Under the pieces are notes generated by a model. It worked only from the letters and a program-made list of their open reading frames with translations. It made no database searches and was not told the origin of the DNA. Below are positions 5,686-26,866 of a DNA stretch of 27,792 nucleotides, piece after piece. Position 1 is the stretch's first letter; each line of letters begins with the position of its first letter. This DNA comes from a virus. Its lineage: Duplodnaviria; Caudoviricetes. The stretch is taken from IMG/VR virus record IMGVR_UViG_3300012933_000335, positions 1 through 27,792 of that record; one strand, written 5' to 3'. Both the position numbers and the translations under genes were made by a program.

Positions 5686-7098
5686 ATGAAATTCAATGAC
5701 CCCACCGCCGGTAGCCAATCTTCTGTTGGCGCCCAAATCATCAGCCACTTCTACGCTAAGAAGGCGCTGGTTGAACTTCCAAAACTGCAGTTCTTCAGCC
5801 AGTTGGCTGACGTGACTTCGATGCCTAAGAACTACGGCAAGAAGATCAAGCGTTACCACTACATGCCTATGCTCGATGATCGCAACATCAACGACCAAGG
5901 TATCGATGCTGCTGGCGTCGCCGTGACCAACACTCAGTACTACGTGACTTTGCCTCGCGCTGTGCTCGCTGTGGCCAACGCTGACAAGGCAACTGCTGCT
6001 ACTGCAATCAACGACAACCTCGATGGCGTGACTGCTGTTGCTGGTTCCGATGGTTCTGCTGGTACTGGCAAAGCCACTATCACTGTGACTGGTTCTTTGA
6101 ACTTCAAAGTTGCCAACGCAACCAAAGCCAACGCAATTGCTGCTCTGAACATCGGCGCTCTGACCCAACAAGGTTCGGGCAACATGTACGGTTCTAGCAA
6201 GGACATCGGCACGATCTCCGGCAAGATGCCTGCTCTCTCTGAGACCGGTGGCCGCGTGAACCGTGTGGGTTTCAAGCGTATCGAATTGGAAGGCACTCTC
6301 GAGAAGTTCGGCTTCTTCGACGAGTACACCCAAGAATCGATGGACTTCGACACTGACGCTCAGTTGATGGAACACATCAACCGCGAAATGCTGTTGGGTG
6401 CCAACGAGATCACTGAAGATGCTCTGCAAATCGACTTGATCAACGCCGCTGGTGTGGTGCGCTTCCCGGGTGCCGCTACTACCAACAGCGAAATCACTTC
6501 GAGCACGATCGTGACTTACGGTGACTTGATGCGCGTGTCGATCCAGTTGGATCAAAACCGCTGCCCCAAGCAAACCAAGATCATCACTGGTTCGCGCATG
6601 ATCGACACCAAGACGATCCCTTCTGCTCGCGTGGCTTACATCGGTAGCGAATTGCTCCCTGTGTTCCGTGCAATGAAGGACTTGCATGACAACCCTGCCT
6701 TCGTCGGCGTGGAGCGTTATGGCGATGCCGTGGGTACTACCCTGAACGGTGAAGTCGGTACCGTTGACCAATTCCGTTTGGTCGTGGTTCCCGAGATGAT
6801 GAAGTGGGCTGGTGCAGGTGCTGACGCTTCTGGCGACGCAAACTGCTACGAGACCTCTGGTCGTTACGACGTGTTCCCAATCCTCGTGGTTGGTGACGAG
6901 TCCTTCACTACCATCGGCTTCCAAACCGACGGTAAGAGCGTGAAGTTCAAGATCTTGCACAAGGCTCCTGGTGAGGCAACTGCCACTACCCAAGATCCAT
7001 ACGGCGAGACCGGCTTCATGTCGATCAAGTGGTACTACGGTTTCATGGTTCTGCGTCCTGAGCGCATTGCCTTGATCAAGACTGCAGCCAAGCTGTAA
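5686..7098 (+). CDS. Major capsid protein (N4 gp56-like) with an Ala/Thr-rich insertion
   Basis: Contains [44 protein letters not shown] and [22 protein letters not shown] is present and a strong terminator follows. Confidence 0.95.
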
Positions 7099-8489: not shown

Positions 8490-10727
8490 ATGGGATGGAA
8501 TCCATTCGCAAGCGAAGAAGTTACCCAGGTAGGCACCCAGGTAATGCGCGTCATCAACGACGCTTCCTTGCCTGACTCTATCCAGTCCGGCTCGATCAAA
8601 GCTTTCTTCCACGAAGGCAACGTGTCCGACTACGTGCTTGAAGACTTGTCCAAAAGCATCGGCGCGCGCGCGGAGAAGATGTACCGCTACGCAGAGAGCA
8701 ACTACACCTATGGCTTGCCGTCAGGTGAGATCTACTCGTCGACCCAAGGTGCTGACCAGGTGGAAGCTCAGATCGAGCTCCAGGAAGGCAAGCAGGTTCT
8801 CATCAAGTACTCGCACTACGGCACGGCCAACGCGCTGCACATCGGGTGGATGAAGCTGATTGCCAGCCATGGCTACAACCCAGACACGAACTTGTTGGGC
8901 ACCTTGACTACCACTAAGGGCAAGTCGGTGTACCTGTCCGACATGGTGGTTGTGGTTCCTCAGACGCTGCTGGCCAACACACCTGCCGGCCGCATTGTTC
9001 AGTGGGGCAGTGCTGCTCGAAGTGGCTACACGCCTGACCGGCCGGCTTCTGCAGCCTTTGCCAATGTGACGACTCCCAGCGCAGTGCAAGTCAGTGACAC
9101 CGGTACCGAAGTCAAGCTGCTGGTCACGTATTGCTGGGAAGAGCTCGGCCAGTACAACGGCACCACCTACGGCACCTTTGAAATTACCTTGGCAGGGTAC
9201 GACCTGACAGCCAACTACTTCCACGCAAAGTACGTGGTCGACGGCCACATCAAGTATTGGGTGTACCGCAAAGGGCAGAACACCGTTGCTGCGCTGGAGA
9301 ACGTCTACACCGAGCAGCCAGCTGTCAGTGGTTCGTATTTCCCGTTCTCGTACTTCCGCTACGGCAAAGCATCGCAGCTGACCGACAAGAACAGCGACGG
9401 GTACAAGACGACCAAGCGCATGCTCAAGCAATTGGGCATGGACTACGACACTGTGGCCACAGGCATCGACGAGAACCCAAGCATTGGAGACGTCGAGCAG
9501 GCCTTGATGATCTTTGCGGTACCGCCGACATCAAGCAACGCAGCAGACAACGAGTACTTGTTTCGGTACTTCGACGTGATGTACGAAGCCATGGATGGTT
9601 CTGGCTCCTTGGCTGAGAACGATCTGCTGCGCACACAGTACGGTCTTCGAAAGCAGGGCAACTGGAGCACTGACTATCAGTCCGTGGTTATCCAAGACAA
9701 GCGATTCAAGATGGTCTTTGGTGTCAACGGCATCTACAAGCAGCTGGTGGCTGGCTCGATTGGAGCAGTTGACAGCTACACCAGTGAGCTTATCCAGGTG
9801 CCCACGCCTGTGACGTACAGCGATGGGGAAGGCGTCAGCTACACCAACATTGAAAACGTGGCGACGTACCGCTACCGCCATCAGATAGCCGAGGGTTTGT
9901 ACGAAGAGCTCACCGTCACCAACATGCGGATGACGTACTACATCTATGGTGGGTACGCGACCGTTGGCAACAACACCAACACTTACCTGTTGGTTCCGTT
10001 GGACTACACGATCACCAAGACAATGCCTCTGCGTCAGCGTGAGCAGCTGTACGCGCGCTCGCTGCACTTCGTTTTCAACAGCCGAACCACGGTCGAAGTG
10101 GAGTGGTACCAGCAAGAATGGTTTGGCATCTTCCTGATTGTGTTGGCTGTGGTTCTGACTATTGCGGACGGCGGCACGGATGGTGGCTCATGGATTGCCA
10201 CTGCACTGGGTGTGACCGGCGTCGAGGCTGTCATCGTCACGGTCATCTTCAACGTGCTGGTGAGCATGTACATCATGCCCGAGTTGTTCAAGATCTTTGT
10301 CAAGGCATTTGGCAAAGACGCCGCAACTATTCTGGCTATTGTTTTGATTGCTTGGGGTGCCTACGAATTAGGTACCAACGGCGTCAAAGGCGCCCCGTTT
10401 GCTCAAGACATGCTGATGCTGTCTACCGGTCTGCAACGAGCCGTCATGGTGGAGAACTACAAGGACTTGTTGGACGAATCCAGCAACTTCCGCGAGTACG
10501 CGGATGCCAAGCAAGAATCGCTTGATGCAGCCAACAAACTGCTGGAAACCAGCACAGTATTAAGTCCTTTCGTAATCTTCGGCGAGAAGCCAGAAGACTT
10601 CTACAATAGGACTATTCACTTCGGTAACATTGGAACCCTGGGGATCACTGCAATTTCCTCCTACGTGGACATAGCACTCACCCTTCCAAAGATTTATGAC
10701 ACGTTAGGAGATCCCAACAATGGCTGA
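8490..10727 (+). CDS. N4 gp53-like virion-associated protein with C-terminal hydrophobic helices
   Basis: 745 aa with SD AGGA. The C-terminal part has WYQ..WF followed by about three hydrophobic segments and ends E.P.DFYNRT. It lies between the gp54- and gp52-like genes. Confidence 0.72.
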   Translation: MGWNPFASEEVTQVGTQVMRVINDASLPDSIQSGSIKAFFHEGNVSDYVLEDLSKSIGARAEKMYRYAESNYTYGLPSGEIYSSTQGADQVEAQIELQEGKQVLIKYSHYGTANALHIGWMKLIASHGYNPDTNLLGTLTTTKGKSVYLSDMVVVVPQTLLANTPAGRIVQWGSAARSGYTPDRPASAAFANVTTPSAVQVSDTGTEVKLLVTYCWEELGQYNGTTYGTFEITLAGYDLTANYFHAKYVVDGHIKYWVYRKGQNTVAALENVYTEQPAVSGSYFPFSYFRYGKASQLTDKNSDGYKTTKRMLKQLGMDYDTVATGIDENPSIGDVEQALMIFAVPPTSSNAADNEYLFRYFDVMYEAMDGSGSLAENDLLRTQYGLRKQGNWSTDYQSVVIQDKRFKMVFGVNGIYKQLVAGSIGAVDSYTSELIQVPTPVTYSDGEGVSYTNIENVATYRYRHQIAEGLYEELTVTNMRMTYYIYGGYATVGNNTNTYLLVPLDYTITKTMPLRQREQLYARSLHFVFNSRTTVEVEWYQQEWFGIFLIVLAVVLTIADGGTDGGSWIATALGVTGVEAVIVTVIFNVLVSMYIMPELFKIFVKAFGKDAATILAIVLIAWGAYELGTNGVKGAPFAQDMLMLSTGLQRAVMVENYKDLLDESSNFREYADAKQESLDAANKLLETSTVLSPFVIFGEKPEDFYNRTIHFGNIGTLGITAISSYVDIALTLPKIYDTLGDPNNG

Positions 10728-11247
10728 CCAATTCACTTACACCCCTATGCCGGCAGTTGATTATTCAATGCCCGGCACTACGCAACAACCATGGGCAAAA
10801 GCCATGGCCAACTGGGGTTATCAACCCAACATCCCTGATCCATCTCGCATGGGAGACTATTCGTTTGCCGGCATGCCCACGCCTCAGCTAAGTGCCATGA
10901 CAACTCCTGCTGTGAGCCCATCTGCTGCTGGTGGCTTTACTGACTGGTTGCGCGGCAACGGCGTCATTGGCCAAGTTGATCCCAAGACCGGTGTCCGTAC
11001 CGATGGTTGGGGTGGTCTGGCTTTGGGTGCTGCTACTGGTTTGGGTAGCTTGTACCTGGGCATGCAACAGTACAACCTGGCCAAGGAAACCCTGGCCAAC
11101 AACAAAGCCCAGTTCGAGCGCAACTTCGCCAACCAGGTGAAGACGACCAACACAAACTTGGAAGATCGCCAGCGCGCACGCGTGGCATCCAACGCCGGCG
11201 CCTACCAATCGGTGGGTGAGTACATGTCTCAGAATGGAGTGAAGTAA
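10720..11247 (+). CDS. N4 gp52-like small ejection protein
   Basis: 175 aa, no Cys, SD AGGAG. A Gly-rich hydrophobic helix (GWGGLALGAATGLGSLYLG) is followed by a coiled coil ending NT.LEDRQRARVASN..AYQSV. Confidence 0.78.
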   Translation: MADQFTYTPMPAVDYSMPGTTQQPWAKAMANWGYQPNIPDPSRMGDYSFAGMPTPQLSAMTTPAVSPSAAGGFTDWLRGNGVIGQVDPKTGVRTDGWGGLALGAATGLGSLYLGMQQYNLAKETLANNKAQFERNFANQVKTTNTNLEDRQRARVASNAGAYQSVGEYMSQNGVK

Positions 11248-12578
11248 TGGCCGAACCAATCACCTGGCGAAATGTCACCGGCCCTTCGCTGGCTGATGCA
11301 AGTCGCCCACTACAGATCGCACAACAAACACTGGCCAGCGGGTTCAACACCTTTAATGACCAGTTGAAATCCATGGAAGCCACCGACGCGGCTAACTGGG
11401 AACAGGTCAAGAAGAACAACACCAACGAGTTCATGAACCGACTCATGGAAGCACAGACTGCTGAGCAGTTTGGCAACATGAATTCGGGCAATGCCATGGG
11501 CAAGATGCTCGCTGGCTACGGCGCACAGATTGATCAAGCTGCTGCACGTACAGCATTGGATCAACGCCTGGGTACTCTGCAGGATCGTGACATCCGCGGC
11601 ATCACGTACAACAACACGATGCTCGATGAGAAGCAAGCACCGATGGTTCGTGAGATCCAGATGCTGAGCTTGACTGATCCTGCAGCCGCCAAGGCTCGTC
11701 TGGCTGAGAACCCTGACATTCGCAAAGCGTTTGAACTGGCAACCGGCATTGACACCCGTGAGTGGCTGGTGAAGGAACGTGGCTGGAAAGAAGAGATGCA
11801 GCCGCTCGATGTCCAAGCCAAGAAGGCAGACATTGAGCGCACAGGTGCCCAGACTGTTCTGGCCAAAGCACAGGCTGATCACCAGATCGCTACGGCTGAA
11901 CGTGAGCGCGCATACATCAACGCACTCAAGGCTGGTGGCTACGGCGGCTTGGGCAGTGGTACAGCTGGTTTGAGCGGCGTTCCTGGTGAGAGTGGTTCAC
12001 TGGCTAACGGTGGTACTCCTGCCCTGGCCGCTGTCAACGCTCAGTGGAAAGAAACGCTGAAGAACTCTGTTTATGGCGGTGGTGACTACTCGACTACAGA
12101 CGGAAAGAAAGAGCTTGATGAAACCCTCAAGCGCATGGGTATTACTGGGGATGCAGCAGACGACATTCGGGCCAACCTGAGCAAGTACTACAAGGACGGC
12201 GCGGTCATTGGCCACGATGACAAAGGCAGAGCAATCCGAGCACCGTTGCCAATTGCAACAATTGTCGATGCGCTCAGCGTGTCTAGTGAGAACCCGCTTG
12301 CTGCAATTACACCTCTTTGGAGCCGTCGTGGTGATGATGTTGTCAACACCCTTGACAAGATGTTTGGTGTGGACAGTAAAGGTAACAAGGTCAGTCGTGG
12401 TGAGAACTACCGTGCAGACTTGGTTGCCGAAATGGCTGCAATCCGCGAGATGCAAGCTCAACGTGATGCACGTTTGGCCGGTACCGCGGTGCCCACTGTT
12501 CTTCAGGACTCTACGGATCCGAACGCTTGGAAGAAAGCCCCAAAGGGCAAGAGCGTTATGTTCCCAAAGGTGAGGTGA
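11247..12578 (+). CDS. N4 gp51-like ejection protein (0-frame product)
   Basis: 443 aa, no Cys, with an N-terminal PITWRNV motif. It has a TAATG overlap with the gp52-like gene and lies between gp52 and vRNAP. Confidence 0.72.
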   Translation: MAEPITWRNVTGPSLADASRPLQIAQQTLASGFNTFNDQLKSMEATDAANWEQVKKNNTNEFMNRLMEAQTAEQFGNMNSGNAMGKMLAGYGAQIDQAAARTALDQRLGTLQDRDIRGITYNNTMLDEKQAPMVREIQMLSLTDPAAAKARLAENPDIRKAFELATGIDTREWLVKERGWKEEMQPLDVQAKKADIERTGAQTVLAKAQADHQIATAERERAYINALKAGGYGGLGSGTAGLSGVPGESGSLANGGTPALAAVNAQWKETLKNSVYGGGDYSTTDGKKELDETLKRMGITGDAADDIRANLSKYYKDGAVIGHDDKGRAIRAPLPIATIVDALSVSSENPLAAITPLWSRRGDDVVNTLDKMFGVDSKGNKVSRGENYRADLVAEMAAIREMQAQRDARLAGTAVPTVLQDSTDPNAWKKAPKGKSVMFPKVR

Positions 12579-13261
12579 CCCAGCCGACACCATCCATCCC
12601 GAATGCACCCGGGGTGGTTGGGTCACCTAAGAAGGATGGGCCGTTGGCCATCAAACCGGACGCCAGTGGGCCCAAGCCTGCAGGCGATAACCTGTCCGTC
12701 AACCTCGGAACAGGTAGCGTTACACCGGCCGAACCTGTAGTCGTCCCAAAAGTTGCTTGGAACAAGCCAGAAACCGTGGTGGAAGCCAAGCCTTCAAAGC
12801 TGAAGGGCCCTACAGAGAAGGCAGTCGTCACGTTTGTGCAGGACGGAGACACCGCATCGCTCAATCGTGCCGATGGCTCGAGCATCAATTGCCGTTTGGA
12901 CTTCGATGCACCTGAAACAGCGCACGAAAAGCATGGCAAAAAAGGCCAAGCCTATGGCGAGGAGTCTAGAAAGACGCTTCAGGACATGATTTTGAACAAG
13001 GAAGTGACGCTGAAGATCGTGAAACCGGCCACTGCCAACGCAAACTTCAACCGAGCCACCTGCCAAATCGAGATCGAAGGCAAGAACTTGTCCAGAGAGA
13101 TGATTCGACAGGGCATGGCATGGGTCTATCGTGAGTTCAACAACGATCCTGAGCTCCTTGGATTGGAAGCCCAAGCTAGAAAGGGTGGAGTTGGTTTATG
13201 GAGCGATCCAAATCCACAATATCCAGCCGATTTCCGAAGGCAATTAAGACAAGGTAGATGA
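12527..13261 (+). CDS. Staphylococcal nuclease (thermonuclease, SNase) domain preceded by a Pro-rich linker; probably the -1 frame extension of the gp51-like gene
   Basis: Motifs V..VQDGDT, RL.FDAPE, Q.YGEES, NFNR, M.RQGMAWVY and E..AR....GLWSD.NP..P..FR. The start is uncertain (TTG 12527, GTG 12575, or frameshift entry). The frame is open from 12467. Confidence 0.88.
   Translation: MEESPKGQERYVPKGEVTQPTPSIPNAPGVVGSPKKDGPLAIKPDASGPKPAGDNLSVNLGTGSVTPAEPVVVPKVAWNKPETVVEAKPSKLKGPTEKAVVTFVQDGDTASLNRADGSSINCRLDFDAPETAHEKHGKKGQAYGEESRKTLQDMILNKEVTLKIVKPATANANFNRATCQIEIEGKNLSREMIRQGMAWVYREFNNDPELLGLEAQARKGGVGLWSDPNPQYPADFRRQLRQGR
12539..12640 (+). promoter_or_regulatory. Candidate -1 programmed ribosomal frameshift signal
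   Basis: In-frame X-XXY-YYZ heptamers C-CCA-AAG at 12539-12545 and 12563-12569. A 13-bp stem forms between 12573-12585 and 12616-12628, and loop CCATCC is complementary to GGATGG at 12634-12639. Confidence 0.62.
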
Positions 13262-13263
13262 AC

Positions 13264-13291
13264 AAGGCGGGTATATCCCGCCTTTTTCTTT
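13264..13291 (+). terminator. Intrinsic terminator after nuclease domain
   Basis: AAGGCGGG-TATAT-CCCGCCTT-TTTCTTT. Confidence 0.88.
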
Positions 13292-13324
13292 AGAATAGGT
13301 GCAATCCTTTATTCGGAAAGCACC

Positions 13325-16300
13325 ATGGACCAATTAAACCCATTTGCAGGCAAGATGGAAGAGCTTTTAAAAGCCCGTCTTGAGAAAGCTGCGCAAGTTC
13401 GTGATTCGATTGCACGAAACGAAGTAGAAGTCGCAGCAGCCCGCGCAGATTGGGACAGTTCAATTGCCGGCAAGCTCGGTTTTGACATGGGTAGCACTGC
13501 TGGTTCAGTTGCCAACACTATTGCAGCTACGGCAGCTGAAGGTGCCGACGCTGTTGGTGCTCTTGCAGGCGGTTTCTACGATGCCAAGGTTGGTGCCTTG
13601 GACATGCACATCCCAGATCGAGCCAAAGTAGCTCGACTCCGTCAGCTGGCAGGCAAAGCCACCGAGGAAGACCTCAAAGTACTGGCTGCACCAGCAGGCG
13701 ATTTGCAGATGCCTAGCTACGTGGCTCCAATGTACCGCGAGCAGTTCAACCGCGGCACGTTTGAGACCAACCAGCAACGTATTGAAGCTGCAGAGAAGGC
13801 CCGTGATCGTGGCCAAGAAGTCCGCAAGGCTCTGAGCTTAGATGACCTGGTAGCTCGAGACCAAGTAACGGGCCAGAAGACCTCCGGTCTCGTCCGTCGG
13901 ACGCTTGGAGATGCAGCGGTATCCACTGCCAAGGGCATTGTTGGCCTGGGCGAGGCAGCAGTTGGTGTCGGTGACATCGCTACGCTTGGTTTGTCAGGCA
14001 AAGGCTGGGAAGCCATGGGGTATGACCCCAAAGGTACCCACAAGGTTCTGGATTCGTACTACAGCCCTGAACAGCGCGCTGCAAACGCCAAGGTACAAGA
14101 AGCCCAAGGCTTCCTGAACACGATTGAAGAGGGTTTGGACAACCCCAGCACCATTGCACAGGGCCTGATTCAGTCTTTGCCTGCAATGTTGGGTGGTGGT
14201 GCCATCGGCAAAGAGTTGCTGATGCAGTACCCCAAGGTCATGGAGCTCATCAGCAAGTCGCCTGCATTGGCAGCTCTGGCTGAGAAGCTTCCAGCTCTGA
14301 CGCAGGGTGGTGCAGCTGCAATTGGTGAAGGCACCCTCATGGCCGGCAACGTAGCCGAGGGTATCCGCCAAGAAACAGACGATCGTCGTCTCAGCTTGAA
14401 GCAGGCATTGCTTGCAACCGGCGCTGGTGTCCTTGGTGCCGGTGCAGCGGTGGGTGGCAACAAGCTTGCACGCCGTCTGGGCGTGGGTGACATCGATGAG
14501 GCTGTGGTTGCTGGCTCGTTGCAGCCTACCCGTCGTGGTGCCCTTACTGCACCAGTGCTCTCTACTGCGTTGGAGAGCGGCGAAGAAGCGGCTCAGTCTG
14601 CAGTGGAGACGGTTGCCAAGAACGTCGCACTGGACAAGGAATATGACGGGGGCTTGGGCAACGCCGTGGGCATGGGCGTGCTTACTGGTGGGCCCATGGG
14701 CTTTGTTGGTGGCTTGGGTGGCAGCGTAGCGGCCGATGGCAAGGAAGAGATCGACAAGCGCAACCGCCAGGCCAAGCAGAAAGATGCTGTAGCTACTGGC
14801 AACGTCGACAGCCTGGTTGACCCAGCCTCCAAAGACTACGATCCCGCGCGCGCAGTGGCTGCTTTGTACGGCAACAGCAAGCAGGAAGGTGCCACCGAAG
14901 ATACCAAGCAGACCAACTTCGAAAAGGCATCGAAGATCGTCTCCGACTTGGAAGAACGACGCGACGGTTTCGTCAAAGATCTGACCAAAAGCAAAGCCGT
15001 GCAGGAAGCACAGGCTCAGCTGGATGCAATGAAGCAAGTGCTGGCAGAGACCGACCCAGCAGATACCGCATTGGTCGCTAAGCGCACCGAGTTGGTCAAG
15101 GCATTGGAAGAGGAAGTTGGTTTTGTCAAAGCTGATGTGCAAACGCAGATCGATGAAACCAACAAGCAACTGAAGACTGCAGAGCAACGTCTGAAGACGT
15201 TCAATCAGCAGATGCAGGATCGCAACTTCGATGCGAAGGCGGCTGCAGCCAGCATCAGTAGCAGTGACCCAGTGGCTTCACAAGCCACAGCGGCCAAGAT
15301 CATCAGCTTGGCTATGGCAAGTCCTGAAGACCTTGATGTGGCCACTGCCGAGTTGCTGGCCACCGATGCCGGCAGCAAGCTGACTGAATCACAACGCAAA
15401 TTCTTCCGCGCATTCCTCAATGCACGCGTTGCTGAGAACTTGCTGAAGTCAACTGACGACGTCAGCGACAACGTCATGACCGGTGGCAAAGGCTACGTCG
15501 GTCTGAACACTTACCGATCCAACATGGCATCGGCATTGACCGGCAACAACAAGCGCGCAGCAGACAACCAGTTGAAGCAACTGGATTCATTTGCTGCAGA
15601 TCACGCTGCCAAAGCCAAGGTGTTGAACGATGCGCAAGCACAGTACTCGAGCACTGGTACTCCAGTCCAAGTGCTTAGCGACGGCAATCGCGGTTGGAGA
15701 ATCAATACTGGTACCCCGCTGTCTGAGACTGACATGCGAAATGGTGGGCACCTAACAGTCGACATGCGCAGCGGCAAGCTGATCGCAAAAGTCGGACAAG
15801 AGAGCCGAGCAATCACCAGCACAGCAAACGAACTGCGTGCTGCCTATGACCACAAGTTTTCTCCCTCACAGAAGGAGACCAATGATGTCAAGAACGAATC
15901 ACCCGCCTCGGGAGATCAGAGCACCCAAGAACGGTCTGCGCAGGAAGCCGCGGCAGAAGAAGGTGACACCGAAGGAAGTGGCGATGTTGGGCAGGGAGCA
16001 GCAGAGTCCGCTGTACAGAGCAGCGATGCAGCGTCTGCAGACGAAGTTGCCACGACGGATGGAGTGACTGAGGAGGCTCCTGCCTCTACTAAGGAAGCTG
16101 CTACGGCTGAAGGTCAAACCCAGTCTACTGAGGAAGCTAACACGACTGAGCAGCAGGGCACTGACGAAGTGCCCGTAGCGGCACCTGAAAATGAAACGAC
16201 GACTGGTCTCACAGTGCTCAGCGAGCAGACTTCGGACGAAGTGTTGCCTCCCAACACTAAGCTGGGCACCGTGTACCGCACCATCAACAAGGCGATCGCC

Positions 16301-19300
16301 TTCCTCACACAGACGAAGGCTCGCATCGAGAAGGACAGCGACATCGCCAAGGATCGTCCCCTGGTGTCGGTGTCGAACATGCTCAGCCGCTGGAATGCAG
16401 GTGAGGTGGTTCCATCGGACCTGTTTGCAGACGAGCTCATGGAAGGTGAGATCGGCGCGCTGACTAAGTTCCAAGAGTTTGCCAACAAGTGGTCTCCACT
16501 GATCCGTCAGAACCTGACCAAGGGTGGTATTGCCAACTTGAAAGGCAACCTCCCCACAGCTGAGTTCCTGTTCGAAGATCCGTTGCAGGACTTCTTCAAC
16601 AAGGATGGTTCAGTTGACGAGAACCTTGTCACGGCCATTGCTTATGGTGCCTACAACTTCCTCGTTGACTCGATGAACACGCCGGCATTGAAGGAAGATG
16701 AAGACATCCTGAAGATGCACGGTCTGCACGGTGCTGAAGTTACGGTCTCCCGTGAAGGTCGACGCGCAATGGCAACCCTTGCTCAGTTCAAGGACAGTGC
16801 CGCAAGCTCGATGGGTCGCTACGTGACTGATGCTCTTGGTTTGAAGGTCAACGACAAGGCGCCAGCCGACTACATGAGCAAGCTGCAGACAGCATTTGGT
16901 CTGCAGGCTCTGGTGTTGTTGTCTCAGGATGAAGTGAACATGGTTGACACTGTCACAGTCGACGGAGCCGACCTGAATCGCTACTTGCCTGGGATCGACA
17001 TCCAGCCCAACCCAGTCAAAGCCAAGTCTGGTAAGGACGTCTACCCAACGATCACGTATGTGCGCGTGCGTCGTGAGGCTGGTCTGCAGCTGCCGGATGA
17101 CAGCAAGTCAATCCGTGACGCCTCAGTGCAATCGCATGGTGTGGTTCAGCGTTTGTTCAGTTCCGAGCACGCCGGCCAGTACGCATCGTGGAAGCCCACG
17201 AAGTTCAGCCAGCAACAAGCCAAGAAGACAGACCAGAACATCTCCAAGACCCAGCGCCGCATCTTGAGCAAAGCGCAGCAGGTACCTCACCGCATCATCC
17301 CAGCAATGTGGGATGCCTTGTCGGTGTTGGGTGATGAGGTCATCCTCAAAGCTGCCGGCTGGACCGAGTACAACGAAGAGCGCATCCAGAAAGAGAACCG
17401 TGACTCAGTCATGGCAAAGAATCTGGGCTTGGAAGACCAGTTGTCAGCGATGAAGGCACTGGTTCAAGACGCTATCGACAACAGTCCCGAGAAGATCAAC
17501 CAGCCGTTCTACGCAACGCTCGAAGTCTGGAAGAACTTCCGTGTTGGTGTGGCTACGCACAACATGAACTTGCAGAGCAGCAAGATTCATCGCTTCATGT
17601 TCACCCGCCCTGAGTGGGAGAGCACGATCTCGTTGAACGATGACGCAGCCATCGAGCAATTGGTGGTGTCTTTGGCTCAGGCGTTTGGTGTGAAGATCGA
17701 CCAGCAGCCAAACATCGAAACGATGGCTAAATTCAAGGACATGGTTGAGGCTGATGACGGACGCATTCAGAAGATGGCCATGGCTTTGGCCAAGGCACTG
17801 GAAACACCGACCGTAGAAGCGCTCACCGCAGTCCAGAAGGAAGAGATCGCCAAGTTCACTGCAGATGCCGAGGGCATGCAAACGCTCCAGGCCTTGGTGG
17901 CTTACGGCCAGTTCGAGAATGCCAAGCAGATCGGTCTCGACGCAGTCACCGTGAACATGTTGGTGGGTGTGGATGGCAAAACCAACGGCCCGATCCTGAC
18001 CTACTTGGCTTTGGGTGCAGAAGAGAACGTTGATTCGTTGTTTACGCAGATCAACCGCGGCGGCATGTACCGTGCAGCGGACAACACCAAGAACTACAAC
18101 GACTGGTACACGCGCGCTACCAGCTTGGACTTGTACGAAGACTTGGCCAGCAAGATCTTGGAAGGCATTGAAGCCAGCCCTCAGCTTGCTGCCATCTACA
18201 CGTTCACCAAGGAATTGACCAGCGGTGACAAGGTGACGTCTGCCGGCCGTAACTTGGCCAAGACTCCGCTGACATCGTTCATCTTTGGTTCGTCAGTCGA
18301 CAAGTCGATCGAGAACATGAAGGACGCTTTCGTCCAGTCTGTGTTTGACCGCATCGAAGCCGTGGCCAACGGGGATGACAAGAAGACGACCCGTCTGCAG
18401 ATCATCCAGAGTTTGAACACGCTGATGGGAAGCAAGATTCCTGAAAGCGCTGGTATCGAGTTCTTGTTGAACCGCGAGTTCAGCGAGAAGGAGAAAGCTG
18501 CTTTGGCTGATGCGTTCAACCAGCAGCTAGGCTCTCGTGTTGAAGACACAATGAAGTTCTACTTTGACACGTACCTGACTCGCCGCAACGACATTAACGG
18601 CACCATTCAGGGCGCCTTCAAAATCTACGACGCAATCTATCAAGACCTCCGAGCCAAAGAGATCCAACGTCTCATGGACGAGGGGGAGATGGATTTCGTG
18701 GTCCGCAACGGAGAGCGTCTGCCTACCCACGAGATGACTGTGGCTCAGGAGAAAGCATTGCGTGACAAGGTCCAAGGCATCCTGCCTTTGGCCAACACCG
18801 CGTACACCGTTGATGACAACGAGTTGGATGCTGGCCTGTACATGGCCAAGACCCGCAAGGGTGCTGGTGACCAGAACAGCGACAAGGTCAAGGTCCTGCT
18901 GGGCAAGTTGATCCCGACGGGTGACAACTGGCGAACCAACCAGATCAGTGGCTGGGCAACCCGGAGCATGGAGACATCCCCTGGTGTTGCTGGTTTGCCG
19001 TACCTGATGCACTCGTTTGACTCTGCAGTCATGCACACGTCTTTGGAAGACACCGATACATTGAACGTGCACGACGAAGCCGGGAACGGTGTGAACAATG
19101 TCAAGCGCACAGCGACCGCCATCAACAAAGCCACCTTTGATCAGATGCTCAACTTCTCGCCGGCGACTGAAGCCTATGCGATGTTGGGCCGTGTGATCAC
19201 CAACGCAGTGACCATGATCGAAGCCGGCGAAGTGTCGACTGATGCGCTGGCTAGTGTGAAGGAGGCTTTGCGCGCAGCCTTGCCATTCAAGATGCGCAAC

Positions 19301-22300
19301 AAGGTCAAGGATGCCAACCTGCCTACGATGGTTATCGAGCTTGCCAACGCTGCCCAGTTCAATGCGAACAAGCTGCGTTTGGAAGCGCTGTCTGAGATTG
19401 TGGCCATTGACCAGTACACCTGGGAAGGTGGCGAGTACCAGGTCACCGAGGATGATCGAGACAAAGCAGTTGCAGCCCTTGAGCGTGCCAAGCTGAGCCG
19501 CAAGGTCAACCCTGAGTTGGCCGCAGCTGCTGAGAAACTGGGTGCTGCACTGCAGGCTACTCGAGCAAAAGCCGAAGCAACAACCAACGAAGCCGACAAG
19601 ACCAGCAACGCACGCAGTGTGTTTGGCAACGTGGGCCCATCCTTGATTCGCAGCGATGCAGATCTGGTGGAGTTCTTCCGAGCCAACCCACAAGCCAACG
19701 CACGTCAGGTCTACGAACTGATGATGCAGAGCGGCCGCTTGAACGCTGTCAACAGCAAGCTGATGAAGTTGCTTTCCCGTGTGGTCAACCCAGACCTGAG
19801 CATTCGATTCATCACGCCCCAGACTGCTGGCAGCGTGGTTTTGGACATGCCGCCCACCGCCGCGCGCGCGTGGTACGTGGTCAAAGGAAATGCCAAAGAG
19901 GTCTACGTTCTCAGCCCTGAGTTCGAAAGCTCTGGTTTGACCTACGAGACTTTGCTGCATGAGCTCGTGCACGCAGCCGTGGCTGAAGTCATCGACAGCC
20001 CGTCCGCTGATGCCAAGGCTTTGGTGGAAGAACTGGAAGCGCTTCGTCAGAAAGCGGCTGAGTACGCTCAGACTGCTGGCTTGAAGGACTACGCCGCGGC
20101 ACTGGGTGATGTTCAGGAGTTCGTGGCTTGGGGTATGACGAGCCAAGCGTTCCAACGAGACGTCCTGAACAAGATCTCCATGGAGTCCAAGACCCGTGGC
20201 AATGCGCTGGTCACCGGCATGCAGAAGTTCATCGACACCTTGGCCAAGCTGCTGTTCAAGAAGCCTGACCAAGCAACAACCAACGGCCTGAGTGTTCTGG
20301 TTTCGAACGTCTCTGGCTTGTTTGCCGAAGCAGCCCAGCAACGTGACAACCCCACATCGTTGACCTTGGCTCAGGCCACTGTGGCAGCGGTTGATCGCTA
20401 CACCACGTTGGACATCCACCAGGCCCTGGATAACGGGACCGTGGAGCCACGATTCCAGGCTCACCTAGCCAACCTCCTCAGCGGCATCGTTGAGAGCCTC
20501 CACGGCCCGTTTGGCTCGTTTGCGGCCCAGATGCGCAAGGCAGAAGCAGGGAACCCTCTGGCGGTATGGCTAAAAGCCATGGAAACAGGGAATGCCCCGT
20601 TTGCTTCGGCCATCGTAGGGTCGGGTTTTGCAGGCAGCGCGCAGGAAGACCATGCGATGCAACAGGTGGAAGCCACGGTCAAGGCTGCATTGGACGGCAG
20701 CGAGACCACCACCAAGGCGTTGTACCGTGAGTTGTACAAGCTGTACGACGAGATGCGCGCCAAGCTCAAGCCATCGGACTTCGCCTCGCAGGAAGACTAC
20801 GACTTTGTCTTCAAGATCGAGGCAGACCGTGGTGACCGCTCGGACTACCTTGCCCGCTTTGCAGCCATGGGCTTGGCCAACCAGAAGTTCAACGCCCTCA
20901 TGAAGGTGGCCACAGACCGTGACACCACGGCAGTGGGTGAGGGCAAGACCCTCATGGATCGCTTGGCCAATGTGTTTGAGAAGATCCTTGGTTTCCTCAA
21001 CGAGAAGCTGACTCGCACCTTTGGTGGCCAGCAAGCCGATGAGAAGCTCATGGCGTTGGTCAGCCAGCTGGTCGACATCGAAGCCAAGAAGCGTTCGTTG
21101 ATCAACCTCCGCAATACTGAGCCGTCCCCAACCAACGACATTGAAAAGTCGGTGAAGGGTGTTGTGGAGTACGGCCGTGAGAAGCTGAGCCAACTGGCCA
21201 GCACAGACATGGTCAAGAACAGCCGCAGTGGTGTGGTTCGCCTGGCTGGTACCGTGACCCGGTTGTCTAACCTGGGCGTCGTTGACAAGTACATGGACGA
21301 CATTCGTCAGTTCCATGACAAGCACGTCAAAGAAAAGACGTCCTTGGGCATCTCGATGCTCAATGAACTGCGCGGTCCGCTGCAGCGCATGGAAGAGTTG
21401 CTCCGTTTCCGCAAGAAACAGGAACAGCAACGCAAGCGCATCATCAACCAGAAGTCCAAGCAGACGCTGGAGATGTTCGTCAACAACGGCAAGGGCTTGT
21501 CCAAGGAAGACAAAGCTGCGTTGACCAGTGCCTTGCTGCGCACTGGTGCTCACAACTTGCTTGGCAAGTACAGCATGGCCGAGATTGACCAGCTGTTGAG
21601 TGACAGCGCTAAGCGCCAGCAGACGATTGATCTGTTGGTGGCTCAGCTGCCACAGAACCTGCGTGACGCCTACGTCGAGCAGATCAACGGTCTGGGCTTC
21701 TACAAAGCGACTGGCAAGTCACGCACACCGGTTCTGATGCTGAACGCGCACATCATTTCCCGCTTGGCTGGAACCAAGTACGAGAAGCGCATCACCAAAG
21801 CCGATGCGGCAAAGGTTGAGAACACCATTAAGCAGTTGATCGTGCTCTACACGATGCGCTACTTGGATAGCAGAGACCGCAACCGTGCAGTCCAAGCCAT
21901 GCGTACCGAGAGCGCTCGCACTGACGGTGCCAACGGTGCTGAGTTCTTGATGATCTTGCACCAGCGCATGGAGCAGGAATCGTTGGAACGCCTGTTCAAC
22001 AACAACCCTGCGCTGATGATGCACGGCTACACGCCTGAGATCACCAACCCGCATACGGTGTTTGAGGTTGCAGACTTTGACCGCGGCACTGCTTTGATGG
22101 AGCAGGGCTATGTGAAGAGTCACCCAGTGGTTGATGACACTGCAGATCCGAATGCCGGAGCCAAGCACATCTATGTGCTGAAGGACGGTGGTTTGGCGCC
22201 TTGGTTGTCTGGCATCTTCTCGACGTCAGACTTGCACACCAAGGGTACGACTCAGCACAACGGCTGGATGAACGTCAACACTGAAGACGGCTTGGACAAT

Positions 22301-23845
22301 GCCGCGTTGCAGATGGCCATCACGTCGCAGAAGCTCAAGCAGATGAACATGTTGATCGGCCCCGATCGCAACATGGATCAGGACAACCTGAACTACTTGG
22401 TTCCGGTCTACAACGAGCGCGGCGAGATCACCAACTGGCGTTACATGATGTCGGACCGTTTGCGTGACGAAATCCTCGAGCGTGACAACAGCTTTGATCG
22501 CGTCATGGGTGTGTTTGCTGGTTCGATCTACGACAAGGAAACCAGTGAGGATGTGAACCGGGACGTGATCCAGGCCCTGGCAGACCAGTTCGACGAAGAC
22601 TACGCAACCCAGCCGGACTCCTACGTTGAAGTCGGCCCGAACTCTGCAGATCCAAAGCTGCGTGAGATCTGGGCGTTGCTCTCTGATCCGTCGCGCGAGA
22701 CCATCCGCAAGGTTTGGGGTCAGCGCGCGATGATGGTCCGCAGCGATTCGCTGGACATTGTCTTTGGCTACCGCAAGTTGTCGCTGGCTCAGACTTTCTT
22801 GAAAGAGCCGCGCATGCGCAACGACTTCGAGCGCTTCACACTGGAAGCTCTGGAAGGCATGCTTATTCGCTACGGCCGTACCCCTGAGCAGGCTGCAAAC
22901 CACATCAAAAAGATTGGCAACAAAGTGGCCAAGGGGGAGCGCATGTGGCAAGAGATCGTGCGCGAGATCAAGGACATTGTGGTCGTCAAGAACGTGACGA
23001 CTCTGATGGGCAACATCTACTCGAACTTCTCATTCCTGTACGCCGCCGGCGTTCCTTGGAAAGATATCCTGCATCACCACATCGTCGCCATCAAGGGCAC
23101 GCTGTCCTACTACGAAGACACTGCTCGCCTGGCCGAGTTGGAGACGTTGATTGCCACTGGCTACACCCAAGGCAATGCCGATGAGGTGCGCCGTGAGATC
23201 GTTCGTTTACGAGACCTGGTTGACCGCAACCCAGTCAAGAAACTCATGGACGCTGGCTTGATGCCAACGATTGTGGAAGACGTGGCTCAGGAGCAGGACG
23301 TGTACTCTTACAAGAGCTTGCTCCAACGCAAGACCGAGAAGTACACCGACAAGTTGAACCCAAAGGTCAAAGACCTTGGCCGTATTGTCTACATGGCTCA
23401 CGACACCAAGATGTACCAGCTGCTTAGCCATGCGACTCAGATGTCTGACTTCGTGGCTCGCTACACGCTGTTCCAACATTTGGTTTCCCGCAAGGAAGAC
23501 CCGATGAGCGAACGCGATGCAATGAGTGAAGTGTCCGAGTCGTTCATCAACTATGACATTCCAATGCACCGCAGCATGCAGTACTTTGATGACATGGGCA
23601 TCATCCCGTTCACCAAGTATTTCCTGCGCATTCAGCGCGTGTTGGTGAAGAACTTCCGTAAGAATCCATCGAGAATTCTTTCGATGGCAATGTTGGATCA
23701 CTACATGAGTTTAGGACCCATCGTTCTGGACAGTTCCTTCGCTCACCACCTGGGTAACAACCCGTTGCACGGTGGGGCGCTGCGATTCCCAATGACTTTG
23801 GATGAGCTTGGTACTGTGAAGGCAGCAATGGCCTTGGTGAAGTAA
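13325..23845 (+). CDS. Virion-encapsidated RNA polymerase (N4 gp50-like vRNAP)
   Basis: 3506 aa with no Cys seen. Single-subunit RNAP motifs: A (DGKTNG, Asp at 17972), B (RNLAKTPLTSFIFG, 18248-18289) and C (LNVHD, 19061-19075). The C-terminus has Q.SDFVARY and F.NYD...F.KYFLRIQ. Confidence 0.96.
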   Translation: MDQLNPFAGKMEELLKARLEKAAQVRDSIARNEVEVAAARADWDSSIAGKLGFDMGSTAGSVANTIAATAAEGADAVGALAGGFYDAKVGALDMHIPDRAKVARLRQLAGKATEEDLKVLAAPAGDLQMPSYVAPMYREQFNRGTFETNQQRIEAAEKARDRGQEVRKALSLDDLVARDQVTGQKTSGLVRRTLGDAAVSTAKGIVGLGEAAVGVGDIATLGLSGKGWEAMGYDPKGTHKVLDSYYSPEQRAANAKVQEAQGFLNTIEEGLDNPSTIAQGLIQSLPAMLGGGAIGKELLMQYPKVMELISKSPALAALAEKLPALTQGGAAAIGEGTLMAGNVAEGIRQETDDRRLSLKQALLATGAGVLGAGAAVGGNKLARRLGVGDIDEAVVAGSLQPTRRGALTAPVLSTALESGEEAAQSAVETVAKNVALDKEYDGGLGNAVGMGVLTGGPMGFVGGLGGSVAADGKEEIDKRNRQAKQKDAVATGNVDSLVDPASKDYDPARAVAALYGNSKQEGATEDTKQTNFEKASKIVSDLEERRDGFVKDLTKSKAVQEAQAQLDAMKQVLAETDPADTALVAKRTELVKALEEEVGFVKADVQTQIDETNKQLKTAEQRLKTFNQQMQDRNFDAKAAAASISSSDPVASQATAAKIISLAMASPEDLDVATAELLATDAGSKLTESQRKFFRAFLNARVAENLLKSTDDVSDNVMTGGKGYVGLNTYRSNMASALTGNNKRAADNQLKQLDSFAADHAAKAKVLNDAQAQYSSTGTPVQVLSDGNRGWRINTGTPLSETDMRNGGHLTVDMRSGKLIAKVGQESRAITSTANELRAAYDHKFSPSQKETNDVKNESPASGDQSTQERSAQEAAAEEGDTEGSGDVGQGAAESAVQSSDAASADEVATTDGVTEEAPASTKEAATAEGQTQSTEEANTTEQQGTDEVPVAAPENETTTGLTVLSEQTSDEVLPPNTKLGTVYRTINKAIAFLTQTKARIEKDSDIAKDRPLVSVSNMLSRWNAGEVVPSDLFADELMEGEIGALTKFQEFANKWSPLIRQNLTKGGIANLKGNLPTAEFLFEDPLQDFFNKDGSVDENLVTAIAYGAYNFLVDSMNTPALKEDEDILKMHGLHGAEVTVSREGRRAMATLAQFKDSAASSMGRYVTDALGLKVNDKAPADYMSKLQTAFGLQALVLLSQDEVNMVDTVTVDGADLNRYLPGIDIQPNPVKAKSGKDVYPTITYVRVRREAGLQLPDDSKSIRDASVQSHGVVQRLFSSEHAGQYASWKPTKFSQQQAKKTDQNISKTQRRILSKAQQVPHRIIPAMWDALSVLGDEVILKAAGWTEYNEERIQKENRDSVMAKNLGLEDQLSAMKALVQDAIDNSPEKINQPFYATLEVWKNFRVGVATHNMNLQSSKIHRFMFTRPEWESTISLNDDAAIEQLVVSLAQAFGVKIDQQPNIETMAKFKDMVEADDGRIQKMAMALAKALETPTVEALTAVQKEEIAKFTADAEGMQTLQALVAYGQFENAKQIGLDAVTVNMLVGVDGKTNGPILTYLALGAEENVDSLFTQINRGGMYRAADNTKNYNDWYTRATSLDLYEDLASKILEGIEASPQLAAIYTFTKELTSGDKVTSAGRNLAKTPLTSFIFGSSVDKSIENMKDAFVQSVFDRIEAVANGDDKKTTRLQIIQSLNTLMGSKIPESAGIEFLLNREFSEKEKAALADAFNQQLGSRVEDTMKFYFDTYLTRRNDINGTIQGAFKIYDAIYQDLRAKEIQRLMDEGEMDFVVRNGERLPTHEMTVAQEKALRDKVQGILPLANTAYTVDDNELDAGLYMAKTRKGAGDQNSDKVKVLLGKLIPTGDNWRTNQISGWATRSMETSPGVAGLPYLMHSFDSAVMHTSLEDTDTLNVHDEAGNGVNNVKRTATAINKATFDQMLNFSPATEAYAMLGRVITNAVTMIEAGEVSTDALASVKEALRAALPFKMRNKVKDANLPTMVIELANAAQFNANKLRLEALSEIVAIDQYTWEGGEYQVTEDDRDKAVAALERAKLSRKVNPELAAAAEKLGAALQATRAKAEATTNEADKTSNARSVFGNVGPSLIRSDADLVEFFRANPQANARQVYELMMQSGRLNAVNSKLMKLLSRVVNPDLSIRFITPQTAGSVVLDMPPTAARAWYVVKGNAKEVYVLSPEFESSGLTYETLLHELVHAAVAEVIDSPSADAKALVEELEALRQKAAEYAQTAGLKDYAAALGDVQEFVAWGMTSQAFQRDVLNKISMESKTRGNALVTGMQKFIDTLAKLLFKKPDQATTNGLSVLVSNVSGLFAEAAQQRDNPTSLTLAQATVAAVDRYTTLDIHQALDNGTVEPRFQAHLANLLSGIVESLHGPFGSFAAQMRKAEAGNPLAVWLKAMETGNAPFASAIVGSGFAGSAQEDHAMQQVEATVKAALDGSETTTKALYRELYKLYDEMRAKLKPSDFASQEDYDFVFKIEADRGDRSDYLARFAAMGLANQKFNALMKVATDRDTTAVGEGKTLMDRLANVFEKILGFLNEKLTRTFGGQQADEKLMALVSQLVDIEAKKRSLINLRNTEPSPTNDIEKSVKGVVEYGREKLSQLASTDMVKNSRSGVVRLAGTVTRLSNLGVVDKYMDDIRQFHDKHVKEKTSLGISMLNELRGPLQRMEELLRFRKKQEQQRKRIINQKSKQTLEMFVNNGKGLSKEDKAALTSALLRTGAHNLLGKYSMAEIDQLLSDSAKRQQTIDLLVAQLPQNLRDAYVEQINGLGFYKATGKSRTPVLMLNAHIISRLAGTKYEKRITKADAAKVENTIKQLIVLYTMRYLDSRDRNRAVQAMRTESARTDGANGAEFLMILHQRMEQESLERLFNNNPALMMHGYTPEITNPHTVFEVADFDRGTALMEQGYVKSHPVVDDTADPNAGAKHIYVLKDGGLAPWLSGIFSTSDLHTKGTTQHNGWMNVNTEDGLDNAALQMAITSQKLKQMNMLIGPDRNMDQDNLNYLVPVYNERGEITNWRYMMSDRLRDEILERDNSFDRVMGVFAGSIYDKETSEDVNRDVIQALADQFDEDYATQPDSYVEVGPNSADPKLREIWALLSDPSRETIRKVWGQRAMMVRSDSLDIVFGYRKLSLAQTFLKEPRMRNDFERFTLEALEGMLIRYGRTPEQAANHIKKIGNKVAKGERMWQEIVREIKDIVVVKNVTTLMGNIYSNFSFLYAAGVPWKDILHHHIVAIKGTLSYYEDTARLAELETLIATGYTQGNADEVRREIVRLRDLVDRNPVKKLMDAGLMPTIVEDVAQEQDVYSYKSLLQRKTEKYTDKLNPKVKDLGRIVYMAHDTKMYQLLSHATQMSDFVARYTLFQHLVSRKEDPMSERDAMSEVSESFINYDIPMHRSMQYFDDMGIIPFTKYFLRIQRVLVKNFRKNPSRILSMAMLDHYMSLGPIVLDSSFAHHLGNNPLHGGALRFPMTLDELGTVKAAMALVK

Positions 23846-23848
23846 CCC

Positions 23849-24520
23849 TCAAGGGTGAGGACTGGTCCGGCCCACCGGGAACCCCCAGTGGCAGTCCTCA
23901 CTCTTGAAAGTCCTGGTCTCTCCCAGGTGTCACACGAATGTTCTTGCACTGTTGCTTGCCCCAGAGGTTTACGCGTACTCTGGTGACTCATGCTGGTAGA
24001 TCGTGTATTACCGCTGCTCTGTGATGCAACCATCAAGCAAACCACTGCCAATTAGCCTTGCGGCTGTTGTCATCTGAAACGACCCGGAGCGCGACTCCCA
24101 GGCTCAGTGGCTTGCTTGATGGTCTTCGTCTCTCCGAAGTGTCACGCCGTTCTGCTGGACTTCTGACCCCCAGGCGTTCTCTCGTCGCAATTACAAACAA
24201 TCCAGCTTGTGCCGCACCCCGGAAACCAGGCGGATGGCAGAGCCCCTTGCGGGGTTGGGTAATAGGTTGATGGTGGTTCCGTTCATTTTTGAGCGTGGGC
24301 TCCGACGGAACAGCGGAGATAGAACAATATTCAAAACAGGCCCTGTTACTGTAGCTGCATAGGGGTTTATGGGCTCAGGGTCTGTTTGGTTTCACCATCA
24401 AGGGTAGGGACTGCTCACATAAAGCAGTGTAGGGAAGGAGTCTCATGGCTAAAAGCAATGAGCAACGGCGCTAACCCGTTGCCAGTCCCTACTCTTAATG
24501 GTGGTGCCTTACGGGCACCA
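23849..24520 (-). ncRNA. Putative structured non-coding RNA array (repeated long-stem modules)
   Basis: No credible ORF. Four stems of 12-21 bp with related arm sequences, two identical-loop hairpins with covarying stems, and GNRA loops on the - strand. The strand is inferred and not certain. Confidence 0.6.
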
Positions 24521-24564
24521 GTCGGTCTTGCATTTTATTACCTGCCTCAGCAAGACATGGCAGG

Positions 24565-24870
24565 TTACTTGACGAGAAGTTCGTCCAGCTTACCGCCCTT
24601 GGTCACATGGTCTTCAACCCATTTGGGTTTGCGTCCTCGTCCAGACCAGGCTTGGGTGCCTAGTTTGTATTTGGTTGCGACCTTCGATTTCCCTACAGGA
24701 ACAAACTTGTTGGGCTCACCGAAATCAAGATCTCGGGAACGGATGCCGTAGGTTCGGATCATCGAGTTGATGTTCTGAATTGCTTCGGACTTCTCCGTGG
24801 CCAGCAGTTCGTCGCGCTCTTTCTGGAGTGCGTCGATCTTCTGCTGGAGCTCAGTCAGCTTGTTAGCCAT
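24565..24870 (-). CDS. hns: H-NS family nucleoid-associated protein (short Bv3F/BpH3 type)
   Basis: 101 aa: an N-terminal coiled coil, then YGI...DL, KY and the DNA-binding signature WSGRGRKPKW. An alternative in-frame GTG start at 24975 has AAGGAG 4 nt upstream. Confidence 0.9.
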   Translation of the reverse strand: MANKLTELQQKIDALQKERDELLATEKSEAIQNINSMIRTYGIRSRDLDFGEPNKFVPVGKSKVATKYKLGTQAWSGRGRKPKWVEDHVTKGGKLDELLVK

Positions 24871-24925
24871 TGCAGGTACTCTCTTGGATTTGGGCGGATC
24901 GTAGAAGAGGGCGTCGAATTGCTTC

Positions 24926-25138
24926 TCAGCTACCTCTTTTTTCGCTCGTTGCTGAGCGGGCTGAACTTGATTCACAGTACTCCTTGATGAGGTATGCGAT
25001 GAATCCAACGATTGCTGCGGTGCACAGGGCGATGCCTACTGCGAATGCAATCGCTGCGATCAGTGCACCACCAATCAATAGTACAGCTAGAACCAAGGAA
25101 GCGGCTAGTACATAGCCGGTCCACTTGATGACACCCAT
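24926..25138 (-). CDS. Small membrane protein
   Basis: 70 aa with a ~45-residue uninterrupted hydrophobic stretch (two probable TM helices). It is co-oriented and tightly packed with its neighbours. Confidence 0.65.
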   Translation of the reverse strand: MGVIKWTGYVLAASLVLAVLLIGGALIAAIAFAVGIALCTAAIVGFIAYLIKEYCESSSARSATSEKRGS

Positions 25139-26862: not shown

Positions 26863-26866
26863 GGTT

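Follow-up and report, generated by a model that had tools for sequence, protein, structure and literature searches.

The IMG/VR virus record IMGVR_UViG_3300012933_000335 contains a stretch of 27,792 nucleotides (nt; positions 1 to 27,792 of the record, referred to here at full length as the window) in which the gene for a gp51-like ejection protein of an N4-like phage ends inside a second open reading frame (ORF) encoding a staphylococcal-nuclease (SNase) domain. The arrangement is a real feature and, judged from its sequence, most likely a programmed -1 ribosomal frameshift. A conserved slippery heptamer and a predicted pseudoknot probably cause the shift, giving a 443-aa subunit and a 671-aa nuclease-bearing subunit, of which the latter is likely to be packaged and injected. 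The layout, its conservation, the covariation of paired bases and the intact catalytic residues were all seen directly. The features on which the argument turns are as follows.

11247..12578, + strand: gp51-like periplasmic-tunnel ejection protein, 0-frame product (443 aa; phrog_6467, E 3e-10)
12539..12545, + strand: first C_CCA_AAG heptamer, in X_XXY_YYZ register, 29 nt from the conserved stem
12563..12569, + strand: second C_CCA_AAG heptamer, in X_XXY_YYZ register, the predicted shift site, two codons ahead of the gp51 TGA
12569..13261, + strand: -1 frame extension of 230 aa, a Pro-rich low-confidence linker (~80 aa) followed by the nuclease domain
12815..13216, + strand: staphylococcal-nuclease domain, extension residues 83-216, with D92, D94, R109, D113, E116 and R162 and the pair C108/C165

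The shift site and its conservation

The window is a fragment of an N4-like phage, in which profile matches identified the portal, the major head protein and a virion RNA polymerase (vRNAP) of 3506 aa. The 443-aa ORF is a homologue of N4 gp51 and DEV gp72: a profile built from it and 27 relatives matches DEV gp72 (8vxq) with an E value of 4e-23, and also matches a 359-aa '66 kDa protein' (11mn) with an E value of 0.057. The original prediction had described two in-register heptamers at the end of this gene and a -1 frame running past it, and its coordinates, frame limits and product lengths were all reproduced on recomputation. After a stop at 12464 the -1 frame runs open from 12467 as far as the TGA at 13259-61, so that the predicted products are 443 aa in the 0 frame and 441+230 = 671 aa after a -1 shift. 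The C_CCA_AAG at 12563 belongs to a shift-prone class. In-frame heptamers are common by themselves (24 in 7687 codon positions of the window ORFs), and a heptamer and hairpin alone are modest evidence; it is the relatives that decide. They separate the two heptamers, for the second is backed by its conserved position, but the first is altered by the change C12539G in contigs of two runs (X6, X7) and is probably incidental.

DNA was available for eight loci, the window included, with gp51 and the nuclease in separate frames; L012, L013 and L014 are short contigs whose upstream ORF was assigned to gp51 from its position. In seven of the eight the -1 frame holds the nuclease, and each of these seven has a heptamer whose end is one or two codons short of the stop. 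The heptamer at the shift position is C_CCA_AAG in the window, A_AAA_AAA in L006, L012, L013 and L014, A_AAA_AAG in L103 and, one codon ahead of the stop, C_CCA_AAA in L105, and these four forms occur in loci that are 25-64% identical across the last 140 aa. The key comparison is that a heptamer no more than three codons from the stop was present in 7/7 loci with a -1 nuclease and in 1/42 gp51 genes without a nuclease (Fisher p 9e-8), the controls being 60 gp51 loci minus 4 cut-off, 7 near-duplicate and 7 nuclease-bearing ones. The gp51 end of P0006 and the nuclease frame of P0030 (both with a longest contig of 69103 and taken as one contig) imply C_CCA_AAA in the same place.

Eight other gp51 relatives (P0007, P0009, P0010, P0011, P0012, P0015, P0027, P0028) end in KK, KKK or KKAK, as would be expected of an A-rich shift site at the stop. 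Wider searches added little: two DNA-pattern scans of viral contigs (28 and 34 matches) returned the L006 locus and no new cargo, and a scan of genome contigs gave one distant SNase only. Among the best 80 of 426 relatives in a metagenome scan at least six belong to the nuclease-bearing clade.

The predicted RNA stimulator

Three helices are predicted 3' of the second heptamer.

12575-85 with 12616-26, + strand: stem 1, containing the TGA and the overlapping GTG (93% of cells paired; 4/10 pairs changed on both sides in 6 loci)
12590-95 with 12634-39, + strand: stem 2, the pseudoknot helix (5-6 Watson-Crick pairs in 6/6 loci)
12596-601 with 12610-15, + strand: stem 3, a hairpin within the stem-1 loop (inner helix in 6/6 aligned loci; 5/8 pairs changed on both sides)

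A stem and a pseudoknot had been proposed for the window alone, and both pairings were recovered and found to covary: 12573-85 forms 13 bp, one of them G-U, with 12616-28, and 12590-95 pairs with 12634-39. The conserved stem, however, begins at 12575 and not at 12573, the outer pair 12573/12628 being broken in close relatives, which leaves a 5-nt spacer after the second heptamer; the third helix is an addition. Six of the seven -1 loci have the three-helix pseudoknot in common, with stem 1 starting 5 nt past the heptamer and including the stop codon, and the stem-1 loop pairing with a stretch 4-16 nt beyond the stem. Across the nested helices 91.7% of cells are paired and 9/18 pairs show a change on both sides, a level reached by 0/500 shuffles, with slid controls at 41-49%. 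One position in the stem-2 register holds A-U, G-C and C-G among the six loci. The window fold gave z = -2.07 against dinucleotide shuffles (8/200 as good), and when the -1 frame was recoded synonymously 400 times neither the folding energy nor the pseudoknot score was reached (0/400 for each); in 6/7 loci the pseudoknot score was matched by 0-6/400 such recodings. No Rfam family matches the window, and the stimulator is predicted to be a new natural bacterial pseudoknot family with covariation. With the heptamer and the -1 offset each found in 7/8 split loci and covariation in six, the aligned relatives bear out the original prediction of a -1 shift at the second heptamer, which is supported by a position conserved while its sequence changed, a covarying structure, the lack of indels and the existence of in-frame fusions.

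In E. coli C_CC.A_AAG was the most efficient heptamer tested: shifting reached 54% when combined with the IS3 pseudoknot, compared with ~0.3% when no stimulator was present (PMC4066793). Stimulators begin 5-8 nt beyond the heptamer (PMC4066793), a range that includes the 5-nt spacing in the window. The X_XX.A_AAG motif and a structure 5 nt downstream are shared with the IS3-type signal (PMC4066793), from which the window differs in that the loop of its stimulator holds an additional helix and the 0-frame stop lies within the stimulator. The Pro and Lys tRNAs would slip in tandem on C_CCA_AAG while the ribosome is paused by the stimulator 5 nt downstream, and the share of the long form may lie between a few per cent and about half. 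Because the same heptamer reaches 54% in E. coli (PMC4066793) the long form could far exceed a trace, although the host may differ, and the earlier description of the 671-aa form as a minority is unsafe.

Several observations weigh against a programmed shift of this kind. The sole RNA run is an assembled contig, which is silent on translation, and shifting is predicted from sequence. A second Lys tRNA, should the host have one, may reduce shifting on AAG (PMC5009743). The windows searched for pseudoknots were chosen after the sequences had been viewed, the loci compared are six or seven related ones and the shuffle test is uncorrected for relatedness. L105 is without the pseudoknot (score 0) and has instead a branched hairpin (-50 kcal/mol over 110 nt) whose folding was matched by 15/400 recodings, while the folding energy of L013 was matched by 16/400. 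In the split locus L094 the nuclease is offset by +1, a heptamer is absent and folding is weak. The nuclease domain of the window is one residue shorter between R109 and D113 than SNase and most relatives. Finally, a GTG overlaps the stop in 6/7 of the -1 loci, leaving room for a restart of translation.

Two details of these exceptional loci may be recorded. At L094:4750-4800 (on the same contig as L004) gp51 ends in GGAGG, three bases and CTT CAA TGA, and the contig stops inside the nuclease; this end resembles the geometry of the release factor 2 (RF2) +1 site, and the +1 offset could be an assembly error. At L105:4680-4810 a strong Shine-Dalgarno (SD)-like stretch (-10.9 kcal/mol) lies 5' of C_CCA_AAA.

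In-frame fusions and alternative explanations

The nuclease also occurs joined to gp51 in a single frame. Among the best 150 cluster representatives 46 are at least 550 aa long, and 33 of the 46 have a gp51-type N-terminus (by profile or motif) with the nuclease in frame. A pair of cysteines typical of the clade, described below, is carried by 73/79 of the short representatives, many of which start in the Pro/Ala-rich linker at a variable place. Plain in-frame fusions had originally been held to tell against a shift; such fusions exist (at least 33 clusters), but they are counted here as support for a working fusion of the two parts. DNA was available for six in-frame loci: L015-L017 are plain fusions, and the remaining three have a run of A at the junction.

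L001:2805-2813: A9 at the junction of an in-frame gp51-nuclease fusion
L009:3370-3380: A11 at the junction of an in-frame gp51-nuclease fusion
L102:4738-4746: A9 at the junction of an in-frame gp51-nuclease fusion

All three have a structure 3' of the A-run, and in each the two other frames meet a stop within 1-5 codons; in L102 the run lies 5' of a glucosaminidase domain and the nuclease. Runs of at least nine A were found only at the gp51-nuclease junction (+ strand, 426,559 nt of gp51 loci), and the A9 frame is repeated in two separate 977-aa clusters. The A-run loci match the transcriptional-slippage design of Thermus thermophilus dnaX (PMC5009743). The tau and gamma products of dnaX are likewise two lengths from one gene reached by interchangeable routes, namely a -1 shift, a reversed layout in which the long form comes from the shift, and slippage on a 9-base run where the two other frames are closed by stops (PMC5009743). 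There a host replication gene is served by a stem-loop stimulator (PMC5009743), whereas here a virion protein is served by a three-helix pseudoknot. In a quick tree, with supports of 87-100 by SH-aLRT alone, the split loci, A-run fusions and plain fusions are intermixed, and every A-run locus clusters with ORFs that were called separately. Since several routes appear to yield the same two products, the comparison suggests that the mixture itself is selected. The same Cys-pair nuclease stands at the end of P0133 and P0189 (2297 and 2377 aa; phrog_8809), which match virion-protein PHROGs of other phages, and nuclease cargo may thus extend beyond gp51.

The alternative that survives best, raised already in the original prediction, is that restart at GTG 12575, within a GTGA overlap, yields the nuclease as a free-standing protein of 228 aa, the RNA structure only gating the restart; this is improbable. 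Stop-start overlaps are frequent in phage operons and the one-base overlap of gp52 and gp51 shows that such an overlap is present in the window. The GTG is conserved in six loci, where it overlaps TGA, and 21/30 separately called homologues begin M/V-T/I (P0029 and P0030 being read from the matching Val). ATG, however, is used in 0/7 split loci, compared with ATG in all 11 other window genes tested, and L105 has GTA and TAA, with no GTG start at the overlap, yet keeps the heptamer. Anti-SD pairing 5' of the GTG is weak, at 0 to -4.3 kcal/mol in six loci (window -2.8), though some true genes are also weak. The conservation of the GTG needs no start, because it forms the conserved 5' arm of stem 1. 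Restart would also leave the heptamer, the A-run fusions and the 33 in-frame clusters unexplained, and the GTG product has no hydrophobic stretch for export or membrane anchoring (top 19-residue hydropathy 0.78, by a crude test). Restart could nevertheless occur at a low level beside frameshifting. A reading of the 'MT' starts of homologues as ATGA overlaps was rejected, the DNA showing GTGA or GTAA.

It is also quite improbable that the frameshift is real and the long form not part of the virion, either serving late breakdown of host nucleic acid or arising from a shift that merely keeps the nuclease low. An active nuclease beside packaged DNA would be risky, and in lambda the frameshift product gpGT is missing from the virion (PMC5009743). 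Yet at least 33 clusters are fused in frame, so that the tunnel protein itself carries the domain unless it is cleaved, the same tail bears in several relatives peptidoglycan-hydrolase domains, which need the periplasm, and the domain ends the two 2300-aa proteins that match virion-protein families.

It is very unlikely that the split reflects a mistake in assembly or an in-frame fusion gene broken not long ago, even though in-frame fusions are common among relatives and the record consists of one fragment, with an estimated completeness of 38%. In five runs, each from a different study (X1, X3, X6, X7, X8), contigs carry the junction with no inserted or missing base, so that at the level of assembled contigs no sign was found of the one-base error that the original prediction had allowed for; X1 may be the sample from which the record itself came. 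X1, X3, X6 and X7 are recorded as freshwater or aquatic and X8 is without a label. Four single contigs span the junction with 15-54 substitutions and no gaps, and a more distant one aligns over 12549-12654, not through the flanks. The changes tabulated for 12552-12645, which are part of the differences, affect the sequence 5' of the heptamer and 3' of the structure, the spacer, a hairpin loop and the outermost pair 12573/12628; one more, at 12583, turns G-U into A-U. In addition, five gp51 clusters at 58-90% identity end on the same residue, the same -1 offset is found in six diverged loci and the catalytic residues are intact. Lastly, RNA-polymerase slippage in place of ribosomal shifting is scarcely credible as the source of the long form in the window, for although slippage could occur on the A7 stretches of four split relatives and on the A9-A11 runs of three fused ones (PMC5009743), the window is without any run of seven or more A and its site reads C3A3G.

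The nuclease, its possible delivery and the neighbouring genes

The extension matches the SNase family PF00565 with 66.2 bits (cut-off 21, E 4e-18), a solved SNase by phmmer (E 3e-12) and the SNase fold by Foldseek (E 4e-10, target template-modelling score ~0.54), the model having a mean predicted local distance difference test (pLDDT) score of 63 and scores below 50 at residues 1-39 and 59-79. Aligned to SNase, whose catalytic set we take to be D19, D21, R35, D40, E43 and R87, the window keeps all six catalytic residues. SNase requires Ca2+, which fits the title of PDB 1snc. The set is invariant in 52 clade rows except at D40 (44 D, 8 N) and in one truncated row, and because the catalytic residues are nearly invariant it is likely that nuclease activity is under selection. 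A pair of cysteines (C108 and C165 in the window) beside two catalytic arginines was found in 51/52 clade sequences and 2/80 other SNases, the clade rows including near-duplicates and having been picked by similarity. Fold and catalytic residues are thus those of staphylococcal nuclease and YncB (PF00565), whereas the window domain is without an export signal and has a Pro-rich linker and the Cys pair. Peptidoglycan-hydrolase domains (SLT or glucosaminidase) are present in the same tail in L001, L102, P0086, P0102, P0119 and P0122.

N4 gp51 and DEV gp72 are present in 12 copies round the portal and form a 10- or 9-mer tunnel (PMC13434306, PMC11445570). The window protein shares with them a homologous N-terminal part and the gene order gp52-gp51-vRNAP (PMC13434306, PMC11445570); its clade differs in adding the nuclease, in some members SLT or glucosaminidase, and a terminator-like site before vRNAP. 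From the role of gp51 and gp72 we infer that the long form is packaged and delivered. Both forms share the N-terminal tunnel part and, by analogy with N4 and DEV, would co-assemble round the portal (12 copies) and in the 9-10-mer tunnel, with the nuclease on only some subunits per tunnel. In the least certain step, a Ca2+-type nuclease held at the tunnel in the envelope would cut non-self DNA, for example that of competing phages. Given the earlier steps, action at the cell envelope against competing DNA is tentatively favoured, with real room for error, because the Cys pair and the peptidoglycan-hydrolase domains point to an oxidising site. The main alternative and a close second is attack on host DNA or RNA from the cytoplasmic side, because the C-terminus of gp72/gp51 has been placed at the inner-membrane or polymerase end (PMC11445570, PMC13434306), a placement that counts against the envelope step.

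The principle of such recoding is known. In T7 gp10A/10B, the T3 capsid, the head and tail of Lactobacillus phage A2 and the Listeria phages A118, A500 and PSA a shift close to the 3' end of the gene adds a C-terminal domain to some subunits, and relatives of such frameshift-extended virion proteins may decode the same domain by -1, by +1 or in frame (PMC5009743). In those phages it is a capsid or tail protein that is extended, mostly by an immunoglobulin-like domain (PMC5009743), whereas here an injected tunnel protein would carry an enzyme whose active site is intact. Searches of a literature that was mostly non-subscription and without supplements turned up no description of recoding in an ejection protein or of a nuclease joined to such a protein. 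The words 'frameshift' and 'nuclease' are absent from the main texts of the N4 and DEV papers (PMC13434306, PMC11445570), whose supplements could mention such domains. The original statement that no description in Schitoviridae was known agrees with the titles and abstract starts of the Schitoviridae-frameshift literature, mostly non-subscription, in which none was found.

If the interpretation is true, recoding would act on a phage ejection protein and a nuclease would be delivered within the DNA tunnel. The C-terminus of the tunnel protein would then be a slot for enzyme cargo (nuclease, transglycosylase, glucosaminidase); this bears on the location of the C-terminus after ejection and on the question of the N4 paper as to what opens the peptidoglycan; the N4 ejection proteins seem to be without peptidoglycan-hydrolase activity (PMC13434306). 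In gene calls the second half appears as a free-standing gene, labelled 'micrococcal nuclease' or 'YncB' in six matches. A wider proposal, doubtful as a whole, is that a broad uncultured N4-like branch builds mixed tunnels whose ratio is set by interchangeable devices (-1 pseudoknot, A-run slippage, perhaps +1, full fusion), and that a disulfide beside the catalytic arginines switches the nuclease between the producing cell and the released virion, the nuclease guarding the entry site against rival DNA from injection on.

The neighbouring features are listed below.

10720..11247, + strand: gp52-like outer-membrane ejection protein, named by position (175 aa; phrog_2646, E 9e-34, listed as unknown function)
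13264..13292, + strand: intrinsic-terminator-like hairpin and T run 3' of the nuclease frame (consensus match only)
13325..23845, + strand: virion RNA polymerase, gp50-like (3506 aa; phrog_2206, 1785 bits)

The gp52 and gp51 ORFs share one base. The order gp52-gp51-vRNAP is that of N4 and DEV, with the nuclease frame and the terminator-like site between gp51 and vRNAP; as had been predicted, the putative terminator comes only after the nuclease frame, the sole + strand terminator-like site within 12500-13300 being at 13264-84. Against 50,697 phage records the nuclease frame gave 7 matches by tblastn, none N4-like by name. For gp51 there were 12 matching records, all from named phages of Pseudomonas, Acinetobacter, Escherichia and Pantoea, with 23-29% identity confined to the N-terminus. 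The head protein shares 54-64% identity with its counterparts in the 15 best-matching named phages. This 470-aa major head protein (5686-7098, + strand) aligns to most named relatives as two pieces, ~83% covered, which suggests an internal insertion. Downstream, ~700 bases at 23850-24560 separate converging gene blocks and hold no ORF of more than 121 codons, no tRNA and no Rfam match, and no tRNA gene was found elsewhere in the window. On the - strand, 24565-25008 encodes an H-NS-like protein (PF00816, E 5e-10), which hints at a proteobacterial host, and 26377-27000 a Tad2-like (Thoeris anti-defence) domain (PF11195, E 5e-26).

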